56,052 nt of DNA from a virus (IMGVR_UViG_3300032157_000011:1-56052), one strand, 5' to 3'; counted from the stretch's first letter, positions 28,713 through 35,993 are shown. Numbers and translations: made by a program. Notes: a model not told the origin generated them from the sequence alone.

Positions 28713-29572
28713 ACAGTCTCGCGCCCACGGCACTCAACGAGGCCTTTGCACTTCAGATCGTCGCGCACATCGTCCCGTGGTTCCGCACGCTCGACCGGCT
28801 GACGCCAGAGCTGTGCCCCGAGTACTACACGCACCGGCTCGGCCAGGTGCAGCGCTCGACGGTGACCAAAGAGGTGACGTGCTTGCGCGCGTTCGTTGAG
28901 TGGCTCCACGGCAAGGGGCTGACGTCGGTCAAGCCGGACGACTTGCCAGCTGTGCCGAAGCGCGACCCGGGCACGCCGCACAAGGTGGGCAAGCGCGAGC
29001 CGCAAGCCGTCGAGCCCGCGGAACTGCGCGCCATCCTTCACGGCCTTCCGGCCCGTTGTAAGGAGCGACGCAAGGAGAGTGGTAACGAGACGCTGTGCCG
29101 GCTCCTGTACGCGCTGTACTACGAGACCGGGCTCCGGCCGAAGACGATCCATTCTCTGGCCGTCCCCGACAACTGGCGCAAGGGCGAAGACGTGTTGCGG
29201 CTCGCCGCCAAGAACGACAAGACGAAGTTTGCGCGCGCGGTGCCGATCTCGCGGGCCGCTCGTTTGATCCTGCACTGGCTCACCGAGGGCGGCACTCGGC
29301 GTGGTCCGATCTTCGGCCGGCGGCCTGACCACCGAGACACGGTCAAGCGCGTGGCCAAGGCGGTGCTTGGCGAACGTGGCGCGCACTTCCAATTCTACGA
29401 CTTGCGCCGCGCAGCAGGAACGCACGCGATCAATGCAGGCGCGCCCTTGACCGGCGTGGCTTGGTTGCTCGGCCACAAGCACGTCAGTACGACTTCGAAG
29501 TACATCAAACCCGGCCAACGGGCCGCGGAGCAGGCTCTACGAGCCCGAAGGAAATCGAACCACGCGCCTTGA
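28463..29572 (+). CDS. int: Tyrosine integrase
   Basis: HFQFYDLRRAAGTHA and LLGHKHVSTTSKYI (R...H-x-x-R...Y catalytic set); N-terminal arm-binding-like VRTVRFSFNKRQCEISTGE; start uncertain. Confidence 0.85.
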   Translation: MSRPNEGWSVGDPRTPGGVRTVRFSFNKRQCEISTGERGYTEACAAAARLVPEYIARGGPAPKVGGKKLHPDALLGPIAADWVDSLAPTALNEAFALQIVAHIVPWFRTLDRLTPELCPEYYTHRLGQVQRSTVTKEVTCLRAFVEWLHGKGLTSVKPDDLPAVPKRDPGTPHKVGKREPQAVEPAELRAILHGLPARCKERRKESGNETLCRLLYALYYETGLRPKTIHSLAVPDNWRKGEDVLRLAAKNDKTKFARAVPISRAARLILHWLTEGGTRRGPIFGRRPDHRDTVKRVAKAVLGERGAHFQFYDLRRAAGTHAINAGAPLTGVAWLLGHKHVSTTSKYIKPGQRAAEQALRARRKSNHAP

Positions 29573-29596
29573 CTGCGGTCCCCCACGCGCTATCTT
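29569..29596 (+). promoter_or_regulatory. Leaderless-type promoter P5: TTGACT-GCGGTCCCCCACGCGC-TATCTT, ATG 6 nt downstream
   Basis: Shares the invariant GCGGTCCCCC spacer with four leftward promoters; -35 overlaps the integrase stop. Confidence 0.5.
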
Positions 29597-29602
29597 GGAG
29601 GA

Positions 29603-30058
29603 ATGCTCCGCTCACTCGTCCTCGCCCTCGGTCTTCTGTTCACGTCCAACGCCTTCGCTGCGGACCCTGACTTCGACGATCGGTGCAAGCGCGCCGGGCG
29701 TGACGTTGGTGCGTACGCCGACGAAGGCGGCCTTGGTGGCGTGCTGCAAGCTCTCATTGCCAAGCAAGTGGGGCTCACGCCGAAGCTCAAGAAAGCGTGC
29801 GTCCAAGTGGCCACGTCGGACATGTTCGCGGCGTACCAAGTTCAGCGCGGCCAGGTGGTCTACTATGACGCCGACTACGGGTTCGTGTTTCTGCTCCGTG
29901 GCTTCAAGGGCGCCGTCGAGCAGGACTCGTTGTTCGGCGCAACCGAGCTCGAAGCCGTGCGCGTCACCGGCGAGCAACGCTACAAGATCGGGCAGGTTTG
30001 GTTCCGCGCGTTCGTGGTGGAGCCCCTGGCGTTGCCACCGTCGAAACCGGCCCCGTGA
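29603..30058 (+). CDS. Secreted protein (moron-like, between int and attP)
   Basis: MLRSLVLALGLLFTSNAFA signal peptide; own promoter. Confidence 0.6.
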   Translation: MLRSLVLALGLLFTSNAFAADPDFDDRCKRAGRDVGAYADEGGLGGVLQALIAKQVGLTPKLKKACVQVATSDMFAAYQVQRGQVVYYDADYGFVFLLRGFKGAVEQDSLFGATELEAVRVTGEQRYKIGQVWFRAFVVEPLALPPSKPAP

Positions 30059-30064
30059 TTGGTT

Positions 30065-30086
30065 CTAGTGGCGCTCCTAGTGGCGC
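30065..30086. repeat. Two direct CTAGTGGCGC copies: candidate integrase/Xis arm sites left of the attP core
   Basis: CTAGTGGCGC at 30065-30074 and 30077-30086. Confidence 0.45.
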
Positions 30087-30099
30087 CGCGTTGGCATCG

Positions 30100-30126
30100 G
30101 GTGCGAAGGAAGGGACTTGAACCCTT
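30100..30126 (-). other. Putative attP core: 3' fragment of a tRNA gene (T-arm plus acceptor 3' strand); not a functional tRNA
   Basis: Minus strand reads AAGGG-TTCAAGT-CCCTT-CCTTCGC-A; lies in a 325-nt non-coding gap downstream of int. Confidence 0.55.
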
Positions 30127-30250
30127 ACAGGAGTTACCCCACTGGAACCTGAAGCGGGCGGGCGTAGTCCAAACCGGGCCATTTGTCGAGACTTTTGCGC
30201 GATTTCGGTCCGCTGGCCTTCGCGTTTTTTCGTCCCGCAACGGGGGGTTT

Positions 30251-30264
30251 TAGTGGCGCCACTA
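30251..30264. repeat. Palindrome TAGTGGCGCCACTA (two inverted TAGTGGC half-sites) right of the attP core
   Basis: Perfect 14-bp palindrome sharing the half-site seen at 30065-30086. Confidence 0.45.
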
Positions 30265-30383
30265 GGCGACCGAATCCGCCAATCCGGATTGACCGATTGA
30301 CCTTGGTGTGGGATGTGTAGGCGGTCGCGCGGACCCGATTACAGCCGAGCCCGCGCAACCTAACCACAAGGGAGCGAGCCCTC

Positions 30384-30689
30384 ATGGCTGACGTTGCTTT
30401 TACTGGGCGCATTGAGCCCCAGCAAGTGATCGCGTTCGTCCACCGTCGGATAGGCGAGCAGACGACCCTGATTCTGAAAACCGCGGAGACCTTGCGCGGA
30501 TTGGCAGACCAACTGGAGGACATTGCCGCACTCCCTGCCACAGCGGACCCGTACGCCATTCGCGGCGCGTCAATTGGCCTCGGTGCAATCGCAACGCAAG
30601 CCGCCTTGTACGTCTCCGCGTTGCCGGCGTACGGGATGGCGTTGGCGGTCCTATGCGAGGTGAGACAACTCGGATCCGACCAGGAATAG
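30384..30689 (+). CDS. Hypothetical protein
   Basis: Track ORF; one of the few genes with an SD-like AAGGGAG 9 nt upstream. Confidence 0.55.
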   Translation: MADVAFTGRIEPQQVIAFVHRRIGEQTTLILKTAETLRGLADQLEDIAALPATADPYAIRGASIGLGAIATQAALYVSALPAYGMALAVLCEVRQLGSDQE

Positions 30690-34613: not shown

Positions 34614-34973
34614 TTACAGCTTGGGAAGATACGCACCGTGTGGGATAATCTTGCCGTTGTGGATGACGTGGAAGTGGCCAAGCCCGTTGCGCTCACCCCA
34701 GTTGCCGATCTCAGCAACGTGCACATAGCAGCGGCCGTGCATGTCGTGGACGTACGCCTCGTACTTCCTGCGGTCCCCGTCCACCTTGTAACCCTTCTTG
34801 GTGTGCTTGTAGGTGGGGGTGCGGGCCGCGTTCAAGCGGGCGGCCAAGGCGTCAGCGGCCAAGCGCGCAGAGACCGATTCAGCAGCCAATTCCGGGGCGC
34901 GCTCGGGGGCAATGCCGCACGAAAGTAGGTAGACGGTGCGCTCGACCACGTTCGTGCTGTATTCGTTCGTCAT
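34614..34973 (-). CDS. Hypothetical protein (119 aa)
   Basis: ATG 34973 in frame with track ORF 34614..35135, 7 nt downstream of P2 -10. Confidence 0.55.
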   Translation of the reverse strand: MTNEYSTNVVERTVYLLSCGIAPERAPELAAESVSARLAADALAARLNAARTPTYKHTKKGYKVDGDRRKYEAYVHDMHGRCYVHVAEIGNWGERNGLGHFHVIHNGKIIPHGAYLPKL

Positions 34974-34980
34974 GGGGTAC

Positions 34981-35008
34981 AGCTTAGCAAGTGGGGGACC
35001 GCGGTCAA
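34981..35008 (-). promoter_or_regulatory. Leaderless-type promoter P2: TTGACC-GCGGTCCCCCACTTGC-TAAGCT, ATG 7 nt downstream
   Basis: 40 nt nearly identical to P1; -35 overlaps the upstream stop. Confidence 0.5.
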
Positions 35009-35295
35009 GGAACAATCGACGTCGAGGCCTGGATCTTGTCCCACTTCTTCGCACAGGTGGGGCAGGTGGGGCGTGATGTGCGTTCGTCCTCAGCGTGTGC
35101 GTACTCGTCCACCAAGTTGTCGGCCTTGACCGCACAGCCGGTGCGTATGGTGTACCCCTCTGCGCTGATGAAGGCGATGTGAGTCAAGAGCGCACGTTCG
35201 CCGATATCCTTGCCCTTGTACGCGCCGCCGAGCACGCCCAACGTTTGAACGCTCTGGAACTCCACCACCATGCGACCAGACTTGAATGTTTGCAT
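35005..35295 (-). CDS. Hypothetical protein (96 aa)
   Basis: Track ORF; ATG 6 nt downstream of P3 -10. Confidence 0.55.
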   Translation of the reverse strand: MQTFKSGRMVVEFQSVQTLGVLGGAYKGKDIGERALLTHIAFISAEGYTIRTGCAVKADNLVDEYAHAEDERTSRPTCPTCAKKWDKIQASTSIVP

Positions 35296-35301
35296 GGGTT
35301 G

Positions 35302-35329
35302 ATAGTAGCGCGCGGGGGACCGCTGTCAA
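35302..35329 (-). promoter_or_regulatory. Leaderless-type promoter P3: TTGACA-GCGGTCCCCCGCGCGC-TACTAT, ATG 6 nt downstream
   Basis: Best match to the sigma70 consensus in the family. Confidence 0.55.
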
Positions 35330-35407
35330 GGGTCTCGAAAGAACGGCGGGGCCGATTCACTGGCACAACCTTTGCGATCGCTAGTCTGTTCACCTCTGAA
35401 CGCTTGT

Positions 35408-35695
35408 TCAGGGTTCGCGGTCGAGCAGCAGATCGTCCGCCGCATAGCAGTAGGACTCGAGCGCGCGCCGCGTGAGCTCGCCCAACGTGACCCCCTGACG
35501 CTCGGCAACGTCGCGCCAGTGGGCCGCGCGCCCGTCAGGATCGGGGACCTTCAAGTCAAGCCTTGGCGTGCGGTGCGTGCCTGAGGTGACGGGCGGACGC
35601 CAGGCGAAGGGGTGGGTGGGTGTGGGGTCCGCGGCGGCGTGTTGCTTGACGGTCAGGCCGCACACCGCGCAGCCAACTCGAGGGGAGCGGGTCAT
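35408..35695 (-). CDS. Zn-ribbon plus ribbon-helix-helix (CopG-like) DNA-binding protein
   Basis: CAVCG near N-terminus; C-terminal RAAHWRDVAERQGVTLGELTRRALESY; ATGA overlap with upstream gene. Confidence 0.5.
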   Translation of the reverse strand: MTRSPRVGCAVCGLTVKQHAAADPTPTHPFAWRPPVTSGTHRTPRLDLKVPDPDGRAAHWRDVAERQGVTLGELTRRALESYCYAADDLLLDREP

Positions 35696-35958
35696 GCTGC
35701 GCGTCGACCTGCGGCGCGGGCGGCAATCCCCTTCTTCACATCCGCTAATCCAGGGTGCGGCCCTGCCACGAAGGAAGCGCCCATGCGAATCAACAAGCCC
35801 CAAGCAATTTGCTCGGTGCGTCGTCGCACGTAGTCGCGAAGGTCCCCAGGTGTCGGCTCCACAGCCCGCACGCCGTCGAAGCTGTAGAGTTTTCCAGCGC
35901 CGTCCCGAACGAACCACATCATTCCGTCGACGCCGCGGCAAACGTTGAAGTCCTGCAT
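35692..35958 (-). CDS. Hypothetical protein (88 aa)
   Basis: ATG 35958 in frame with track ORF 35692..36006, 7 nt downstream of P4 -10. Confidence 0.5.
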   Translation of the reverse strand: MQDFNVCRGVDGMMWFVRDGAGKLYSFDGVRAVEPTPGDLRDYVRRRTEQIAWGLLIRMGASFVAGPHPGLADVKKGIAARAAGRRAA

Positions 35959-35965
35959 GGCCCTC

Positions 35966-35993
35966 AAACTAGCAAGCGGGGGACCGCGCGCAA
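35966..35993 (-). promoter_or_regulatory. Leaderless-type promoter P4: TTGCGC-GCGGTCCCCCGCTTGC-TAGTTT, ATG 7 nt downstream
   Basis: Same spacer 10-mer and geometry as P1-P3 and P5. Confidence 0.45.

Follow-up and report, generated by a model that had tools for sequence, protein, structure and literature searches.

The window analysed here is a stretch of viral DNA of 56,052 bp (IMGVR_UViG_3300032157_000011), a JGI metagenomic contig of complete length derived from a temperate myovirus of a lineage without a cultured member. An earlier note on this DNA described five sigma-70-like promoters (P1 to P5) placed for leaderless transcripts, whose 16-nt spacers all begin with the same 10 bases, and took these bases for a shared operator or a special recognition element. 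The locus therefore raises the question of which of the two the spacer sequence represents, and of what reads it. The conserved unit is a 12-bp element, which is most likely an operator for the phage's own Arc/CopG-like repressor.

Five promoters with a common spacer element

Direct reading of the window bore out the described pattern in coordinates, strands and sequences, with five exact copies of GCGGTCCCCC (at 29575 on the plus strand and at 34567, 34993, 35314 and 35978 on the minus strand). Shuffling gave an expectation of 0.27 copies, and five copies were reached in 0 of 100 shuffles. Variants with one mismatch occurred near the level of chance (12 found, 9.3 expected), and thus no hidden extra copies are present. 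When a 24-nt consensus, TTGACNGCGGTCCCCCRCNNGCTA, was allowed up to three mismatches, the same five sites and nothing else were recovered (0.00 expected). At each site the first 10 bases of a 16-nt spacer are GCGGTCCCCC, preceded by a TTGACN-like -35 (TTTACA in P1, TTGCGC in P4) and followed by a TAnnnT -10 and, 6–7 nt on, an ATG.

The unit conserved in the spacers is a 12-mer, GCGGTCCCCCRC (GCGG-TCCC-CCRC), rather than the 10-mer. It starts directly after the -35 and consists of two inverted 4-bp boxes (GCGG; CCGC or CCAC) with TCCC between them. Two variants occur, GCGGTCCCCCAC in P1, P2 and P5 and GCGGTCCCCCGC in P3 and P4. The promoters are as follows, each read from the -35 to the start codon.

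29567-29605, plus strand: P5, TTGACT / GCGGTCCCCCACGCGC / TATCTT / GGAGGA / ATG; -35 at 29569-29574, 12-mer GCGGTCCCCCAC at 29575-29586, GCGC, -10 at 29591-29596, 6 nt, ATG at 29603.
35956-35995, minus strand: P4, TTGCGC / GCGGTCCCCCGCTTGC / TAGTTT / GAGGGCC / ATG; -35 at 35993-35988, 12-mer GCGGTCCCCCGC at 35987-35976, TTGC, -10 at 35971-35966, 7 nt, ATG at 35958.
35293-35331, minus strand: P3, TTGACA / GCGGTCCCCCGCGCGC / TACTAT / CAACCC / ATG; -35 at 35329-35324, 12-mer GCGGTCCCCCGC at 35323-35312, GCGC, -10 at 35307-35302, 6 nt, ATG at 35295.
34971-35010, minus strand: P2, TTGACC / GCGGTCCCCCACTTGC / TAAGCT / GTACCCC / ATG; -35 at 35008-35003, 12-mer GCGGTCCCCCAC at 35002-34991, TTGC, -10 at 34986-34981, 7 nt, ATG at 34973.
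34545-34584, minus strand: P1, TTTACA / GCGGTCCCCCACTTGC / TAAGCT / GTACCCC / ATG, with a spacer identical to that of P2; -35 at 34582-34577, 12-mer GCGGTCCCCCAC at 34576-34565, TTGC, -10 at 34560-34555, 7 nt, ATG at 34547.

In an alignment of the five, conservation extends from the CC preceding the -35 through the TA of the -10 (-38 to -11) and drops abruptly outside. The exception to this sharp boundary is the pair P1 and P2, which are 95% identical across 44 nt, reaching into ATGACGA. A generic promoter scan scored P3 at 10/12 and P5 at 9/12. The 16-nt spacers fall within the 16-18 nt of sigma-70-type promoters. In P1, P3 and P5 no possible start codon of the downstream open reading frame (ORF) precedes the ATG, and the ORFs behind all five promoters are of coding type, with a third-position GC content (GC3) of 0.67-0.82. 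The integrase gene ends within P5, its stop codon being the TGA inside the -35 TTGACT. From this geometry we infer that the five sites are sigma-70-type promoters, positioned for leaderless mRNAs that would start at the ATG.

Shared spacers could also arise without any function in the spacer, if the five promoters were recent copies of one cassette, spread by duplication or gene conversion. The similarity of P1 and P2 includes the first codons and looks recent, and the genes downstream are ORFans unrelated to one another, a class of gene that is readily gained and lost. The limits of conservation, however, coincide with functional elements in all five copies, and P4 combines a degenerate -35 (TTGCGC) with a perfect spacer. 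Evidence from related phages, given below, also goes against such copying, and we regard it as very unlikely.

An action of the element in RNA, as a processing or hairpin signal in read-through transcripts, seems the least credible of the explanations considered. P4, P3, P2 and P1 are arranged in tandem with no terminator-like sites between P4 and P1, so that each spacer would be included in read-through RNA from the preceding promoter, and GCGG and CCGC could form a 4-bp stem. Such a stem with a 4-nt loop is too weak, however; P5 and P4 have no upstream promoter of the same class, and in every lineage the element keeps its place with respect to the -35 and -10, which is a constraint at the level of DNA.

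P1 alone carries the heptamer GGGGGAC 7 nt upstream of its -35, the inverse of GTCCCCC in the 12-mer (34588-34594 and 34567-34573, minus strand). The resulting 7-bp inverted repeat flanks the -35, and a copy of a second motif, described in the last section, lies just upstream (34603-34610). The other four promoters lack this arrangement.

The candidate regulator and its relatives

The genes behind the promoters are small.

29603-30058, plus strand: P5 gene, 151 amino acids (aa), GC3 0.80, no Pfam match.
35692-35958, minus strand: first gene of the P4 operon, 88 aa, ORFan.
35408-35695, minus strand: second gene of the P4 operon, 95 aa, candidate ribbon-helix-helix (RHH)-like regulator.
35005-35295, minus strand: P3 gene, 96 aa, ORFan.
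34614-34973, minus strand: P2 gene, 119 aa, ORFan.
33994-34547, minus strand: P1 operon, an 82-aa gene (34299-34547) closely followed by a 100-aa gene (33994-34296).

The start of 35408-35695 overlaps the stop of 35692-35958 by ATGA, and P4 therefore drives a two-gene operon. The P5 gene follows the integrase gene; the N-terminus of its product, MLRSLVLALGLLFTSNAFA/AD, reads as a signal peptide, and it would be an accessory ('moron'-type) gene. The P3 product is an ORFan by exact-protein look-up and homologue search, and the P2 product had no homologue other than itself among 5.8 billion proteins. No gene of the leftward block matched Pfam, even at E<=5, and domain scans found no helix-turn-helix (HTH) or other DNA-binding domain in the genes that accompany the candidate regulator in the block.

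The 95-aa protein combines an N-terminal CxxC..H segment with a C-terminal RHH-like domain (the strand RLDLKVPD and helices 57-67 and 71-86), and its family has the core HRTPRLDLKVPDPxGxxxxWRxxAxxxGVxLGELVRRAL. An AlphaFold2 model made from nine sequences had a mean predicted local distance difference test score (pLDDT) of 75.5, with the two helices at pLDDT 86-97 after an extended RLDLKVP segment. In a Foldseek comparison with PDB no match reached E<1; the top matches were mostly RHH proteins (ORF56, Arc, CopG, ParG, AmrZ and RHH antitoxins), with target template modelling scores of 0.63-0.73. The Pfam families RHH_1 and RHH_10 weakly match three homologues (E = 0.002-0.02) and PHROG 6506, 'Arc-like repressor', matches two (E = 7e-4), while a profile of the family found nothing among PDB sequences. 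The model and these matches make it likely that 35408-35695 encodes an RHH protein, of a subfamily that, by its sequence, has an N-terminal CxxC..H extension and lacks a Pfam model.

An exhaustive HMMER search with the 95-aa protein returned a small family, of which four members were traced to contigs. All relatives are short metagenomic contigs, and the number of operators per genome can be read from the window only. The promoter in front of the RHH gene reads as follows in the four lineages.

L153–155: RHH homologue P0140, 63% identity; TTGCGC / GCGGTCCCCCGC / GGGGT / CACTAT, 6 nt, ATG.
L156: P0129, 54–61%; TTGCGC / GCGGTCCCCCGC / GGGGT / CATGAT, 6 nt, ATG.
L174: P0130, about 52%; TTGCAC / GTGGGGGACCGC / GTGT / TAAGGT, 6 nt, ATG.
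L175: P0132, about 35%; TTGCGC / GCGGATATCCGC / GCGC / TATAAC, 8 nt, ATG.

The layout is common to all four: -35, 12-mer, 4-5 nt, -10, 6-8 nt, ATG. As far as position goes, the RHH gene thus lies behind its own putative operator in the P4 operon of the window and in four other lineages. The 12-mer in L153 and L156 is identical to the P3/P4 variant, and in an alignment of the window with these two, gCTTGCGCGCGGTCCCCCGC is the only conserved intergenic block. L153–155 is the closest relative, since its head protease is 72% identical to that of the window. The 12-mer of L174, when reverse-complemented, matches GCGGTCCCCCAC, the P1/P2/P5 variant, exactly. In L175 the boxes are the same and the centre is ATAT; the promoter's ATG is that of the RHH gene itself, the sole gene behind it. 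The first gene of the P4 operon is unrelated between the window, L153/L156 and L174, and is absent in L175.

Thus the 12-mer and the RHH-like gene stay together while their surroundings are replaced, and on these grounds we read the spacer as an operator. The earlier note had named two candidate binders, the RHH protein and the product of 32257-32802. The first is favoured by its homologues in the four lineages, all behind promoters that bear the element; the second is a poor candidate, having an array of nine phased 22-33-nt repeats of its own. The relatives also speak against mere copying of a cassette: the 12-mer keeps its position where the RHH proteins are only 52-63% identical and the flanking DNA has diverged, and it is inverted in L174.

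A second set of relatives (L127–L129 and L145–L150) was found through the head protease, at 45–57% identity; in this region these phages have no more than the integrase and the protease in common with the window. They use the same promoter design with another palindrome in the spacer.

L150: TTGCGC / GCTAGGATCCTAGCGC / TAAGCT, 9 nt, ATG; plus five further copies of GCGCTAGGAYCCTAGCGC, two of them after stop codons and one inside a lipoprotein signal sequence.
L148: TTGCAA / GTGGATATCCGC / …TAAGCT, 6 nt, ATG; and TTGCGA / GCGGATATCCAC / …TAAGGT, 6 nt, ATG.

The palindrome GCGCTAGGATCCTAGCGC has six copies in L150 and four in L128, some of them outside promoters, and L129 has at least six copies of a CTAGGGCCCTAG palindrome. 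A protein common to L128 and L150, which have the same palindrome, was sought as a possible regulator; only accessory genes near the phage attachment site (attP) are shared. L148 has two GYGGATATCCRC sites with boxes GYGG/CCRC as in the window and the centre ATAT. They are reverse complements of each other, and therefore indicate independence of orientation, as with a dyad-binding protein. The inverted GCGG/CCRC boxes at spacer positions 1-12 were in all seen in the five window promoters and in L153, L156, L174, L175 and L148. The promoter architecture described in the earlier note recurs in all relatives with the same geometry, the ATG lying 6-9 nt after the -10.

These comparisons bear on whether the spacer might be read by the transcription machinery itself, as a special promoter class served by a phage or alternative sigma factor or by a polymerase-modifying protein. 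The five copies in the window have one orientation relative to transcription, the asymmetric TCCC is invariant, and the second promoter-associated motif (the TCAAATGA box) shows that the phage has unusual start-site signals. Against this, L174 carries the identical 12-mer reversed with the -35/-10 geometry unchanged, which argues against an orientation-dependent element read by RNA polymerase and fits a dyad-binding protein. The centre is ATAT in L175 and L148, and L128, L129 and L150 have unrelated palindromes in place of the whole element, within an unchanged TTGNNN-16/17-TAnnnT frame. A non-exhaustive scan of the proteins showed no sigma-like gene. Reading by the machinery is therefore highly improbable, and of the two roles first proposed for the spacer the operator gains from co-inheritance with the RHH gene, while the special recognition element loses by the inversion in L174.

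Other searches yielded no further relatives. Motif scans gave more than 120 matches in genome contigs, all attributable to chance and none in promoter context (the pattern is too short); in metagenome contigs first no match and then 17 chance matches inside coding DNA; and in viral contigs chance matches only. Scanning viral contigs at the protein level, with the integrase and the RHH alignment as queries, gave no relatives either, and none were found among 50,697 deposited phage genomes by near and distant DNA searches and by tblastn with the capsid protein and the helicase encoded at 2026-3825.

Just downstream of the RHH stop codon, four lineages share a conserved non-coding sequence, GAACAGACTAGC-N3-4-GCAAMGG, within diverged flanks. 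It occurs once in the window.

35360-35391, minus strand: GAACAGACTAGC element of the window.
About 10377-10400 in L153, about 1050-1075 in L156 and about 591-612 in L175: the same element.

Proposed repression and comparison with known systems

The reading we favour, and hold to be rather probable, is that the RHH protein binds the 12-bp operators, autoregulates P4 and co-represses P1, P2, P3 and P5. The 35408-35695 protein would bind GCGG-TCCC-CCRC as a dimer of dimers, in the fashion of Arc and CopG. Occupancy of the operator, at about -29 to -18, would then hinder the binding of RNA polymerase or the formation of the open complex, giving negative autoregulation at P4 and coordinated repression at the other four promoters. 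The regulon would comprise seven small genes, namely the secreted 151-aa protein next to the integrase, five ORFans and the regulator. The regulon may be either a set expressed in the lysogen and held in check by autoregulation, or an early lytic set. From sequence we predict that the promoters are active, that their transcripts start leaderless, that the protein binds and that regulation is negative.

Several points weigh against this proposal. With only 4 bp each the boxes are short, and they are GC-rich in a genome that itself has 62% GC; their spacing is 4 bp, compared with 5 bp in Arc and CopG. The invariant asymmetric centre TCCC is not accounted for by simple recognition of a dyad. The window protein itself has no Pfam match, and Foldseek E values of 1 or more do not establish the RHH fold statistically. 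In the 4.7-kb contig of L148 the operator type is present and an RHH gene was not seen, and in the relatives with other palindromes no RHH homologue turned up in the 10 kb on either side. The assignment to sigma-70 and to leaderless translation is argued from geometry.

Some of these points would suit a different binder equally. The 12-mer could be the operator of another phage protein, for instance the main immunity repressor encoded elsewhere, with the RHH gene just one of the regulated genes. An operator promoter upstream of the RHH gene in all lineages is equally the layout of a target, so that the co-occurrence of gene and element may fit both cases; the absence of an RHH homologue from the flanks in relatives with other spacer palindromes and the weak evidence for the fold point the same way. 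On the other side, of all the genes only that for the RHH protein accompanies the operator across lineages, its partner being swapped or absent, and no HTH or other DNA-binding domain came up in the remaining genes of the leftward block. For Arc, CopG and RHH antitoxins, autoregulation of the RHH gene through an operator of its own in front of it is the rule (PMC2724298). We consider another binder unlikely.

Operators of RHH repressors are built from short boxes of about 4 bp, inverted or in tandem and spaced by some half to one helical turn, that overlap the regulated promoter. The closest models for the proposed repression by the RHH protein are Arc and CopG. Each of their operators overlaps the promoter and has two inverted 4-bp boxes with a gap of 5 bp, each box being occupied by one dimer; CopG acts by excluding RNA polymerase, Arc by preventing formation of the open complex (PMC2724298). 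Arc of phage P22 (Pant/Pmnt, immI) resembles the system proposed here in being a small phage-encoded RHH-type protein with a two-box operator within a promoter and an autoregulatory role (PMC2724298), the RHH type being likely and the autoregulation proposed in the window. It differs in its TAGA boxes, 5 bp apart, and in serving two divergent promoters from one operator, whereas the window has GCGG/CCRC boxes 4 bp apart in five separate predicted leaderless promoters. The Arc operator is positioned between the -35 and -10 of Pant. The window protein also carries the N-terminal CxxC..H segment as an extra part, and its sequence shows no detectable similarity to that of Arc. CopG of pMV158 is likewise a minimal RHH repressor, whose 13-bp pseudo-symmetric element at Pcr overlaps the -35 of its own operon (PMC2724298), but it belongs to a plasmid copy-number circuit with a single operator, TGCA boxes and transcripts that are not leaderless. 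RHH antitoxins (RelB, MazE6, AtaR) share with the P4 operon the two-gene arrangement and the stop/start overlap, and have an operator in the promoter of their own RHH gene, as is likely for the RHH-like gene here. In the window, by contrast, the partner gene lies upstream, and the operator is also found at four other promoters; in relatives the partner is replaced or missing, and there is thus no conserved toxin.

Likenesses to other phage systems are more limited. The repressor gp71 of mycobacteriophage L5 acts at an operator at Pleft and at 'stoperators', asymmetric 13-mers bound by an HTH monomer. About 24-30 such sites are spread genome-wide, mostly outside promoters and in short intergenic gaps, and act on elongation in an orientation-dependent manner. 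Both phages are temperate and repeat a short GC-rich site that abuts or overlaps a -35 (TTGACA of an early promoter in L5), but the window has only five sites, all in promoter spacers, dyad-like and, judging by L174, tolerant of inversion, and these do not belong with the stoperators. The lambda cI transcript from PRM is leaderless and starts at the AUG, and in lambda this maintenance transcript is the only leaderless one; here the leaderless geometry extends to the whole accessory regulon and to the equivalent promoters of the relatives. Two further types of regulator were considered and rejected. Activators of the MerR type bind over-long spacers of 19-20 bp, which they have to distort; those of the window measure 16 nt and those of relatives 16-17 nt. 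The 12-mer is unlike the C-boxes (GACT-N3-AGTC) of the leaderless, autoregulated C-protein controllers of restriction-modification systems, in which an HTH C protein is encoded beside a restriction gene, and the block contains no HTH or restriction gene.

The principle of the proposed switch is textbook, that of a phage repressor and its operator; the multi-promoter leaderless regulon proposed here has not been described before. A sequence coincidence is turned into a concrete, testable regulon in which a single candidate repressor would act at five operators on seven genes, and the natural variants (the same boxes, an inverted site, another centre, a diverged beta-strand) form a specificity series for RHH-DNA recognition. 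The compact, predicted leaderless and repressible promoters with their 16-nt spacers are possible parts for high-GC hosts. The general understanding of phage regulation is unchanged.

A broader interpretation is possible, if doubtful. In L175 the change of the centre from TCCC to ATAT goes together with a change of the beta-strand from RLDLKV to RVAIFV, which hints that the central 4 bp carry specificity. The promoters might then be a portable chassis, composed of a -35, an exchangeable operator of 12-18 bp, a -10 and a start codon at +1, into which acquired accessory genes are plugged so that each 'moron' becomes wired to the phage repressor, with specificity set by the central 4 bp and a matching RHH beta-strand. 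If true, this would amount to a compact, readable protein-DNA recognition code and to a route by which phages domesticate new genes.

Genome context, a second promoter-associated motif and other features

Minus-strand genes of the window are confined to a single block, from about 30990 to 35958. The plus strand also codes for an exonuclease, a DNA polymerase, a terminase, a portal and a MuF-like protein.

2026-3825: helicase, on the plus strand.
28463–29572, plus strand: tyrosine integrase.
From 36009 onward, plus strand: head protease, capsid, sheath, tape measure and baseplate.

Shine-Dalgarno sequences are missing upstream of most genes, including those for capsid, sheath and tube, and A-rich leaders are common, which points to a host that may make weak use of this signal. 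An archaeal (halovirus) origin, raised by a literature match, was rejected: a TATA box at about -27 is missing, the hexamers are of the bacterial -35/-10 kind, and the structural proteins fall into families of bacterial phages.

A second motif, rAAACGTCAAATGA(A/C)GA (the TCAAATGA box), has 22 sites in the window, 17 on the plus and 5 on the minus strand, and 21 of the 22 are on the strand of the local genes. Examples are found at 1935, 3831, 8705, 11323, 17633, 26699, 27105, 36659, 37715, 42195 and 51345 (plus) and at 32075, 32366, 32799 and 34603 (minus). It is presumably the 'box' of the earlier note. The idea that it always holds a start codon was rejected, since a long ORF begins at its ATG in only about half of the cases; in the others, for example at the capsid and tail tube genes, the gene starts 25-90 nt downstream of the box. 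The motif thus looks more like a signal for transcription start or RNA processing than like a start codon. The box occurs at orthologous places in L153 and is essentially absent farther out, with one near-match in L150.

The earlier note had also set the five promoters apart from the box-associated genes as a separate regulatory class. That separation is blurred: in the closest relatives a TCAAATGACGAAC box follows directly on the operator promoter, the ATGACGA of P1 and P2 is also part of the box, and the spacer of a promoter-like site at 26311 contains a box. This site (26311-26349, plus strand) is a sixth candidate of the leaderless type, TTGATT-17-TAAGCT-GTCTGGC-ATG, before the ORF 26347-26673. 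Its -10 and first discriminator bases are those of P1 and P2, its spacer contains the TCAAATGACG box, and the 12-mer is absent. Within the protease gene (36036-37223), the box at 36659-36666 provides an in-frame internal ATG (..ESKRQ-MKILIGGKELEG..) with 186 codons to the stop, an arrangement kept in L153; the C-terminal part of the gene likely encodes a nested scaffold protein.

Nine repeats of 22-33 nt with the core TTGCGCTGGGGACTTGACGCAA lie at 32566-33114, helically phased at spacings of 32, 42-43 and about 145-150 bp. The array straddles the start of the ORF 32257-32802, and the repeated ASSPQRK of the encoded protein derives from it. On the minus strand the repeat has TTG..GTCCCC..GCGC in common with the P promoters, at 13 of 22 positions. 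It looks like either origin iterons with an initiator gene or a centromere or operator array. A perfect 40-nt inverted repeat (30833-30872 and 31563-31602, 690 nt apart) is located in two convergent ORFs, and could be the border of an invertible segment, a recombination scar or an assembly artefact.

The P5 gene had been placed beside attP. ARAGORN detected no tRNA gene and Rfam no match in the window, and no tRNA fragment was thus found there; ARAGORN also found no tRNA in L128, L129 and L150. Read by eye, the window has only a weak T-arm-like GGTTCAAGTCC at 30095-30135 (minus strand). In relatives, a sequence resembling the 3' half of a tRNA (..GTCGCGGGTTCGATCCCCGTC..CACCC), with the anticodon loop GTG (His) as read by eye, lies next to the accessory cluster and is probably the attP core.

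3300-3410 in L128, 5760-5815 in L129 and 1-30 in L150: tRNA 3'-half-like sequence.

Finally, an AT-rich, palindrome-like motif is found in the divergent region upstream of the head protease gene in all relatives (ACACAAATCAATTTGTG, ATCAATTGAT and AAATTAATTTGTG; CACATTTGATTTTAATC in the window). It may be a late promoter or a switch site.

36003-36030 in the window: AT-rich motif.
426-512 and 9933-9947 in L128; 489-505, 1720-1736 and 9921-9937 in L129: AT-rich motif.
Upstream of the protease in L150, L145 and L148: AT-rich motif.

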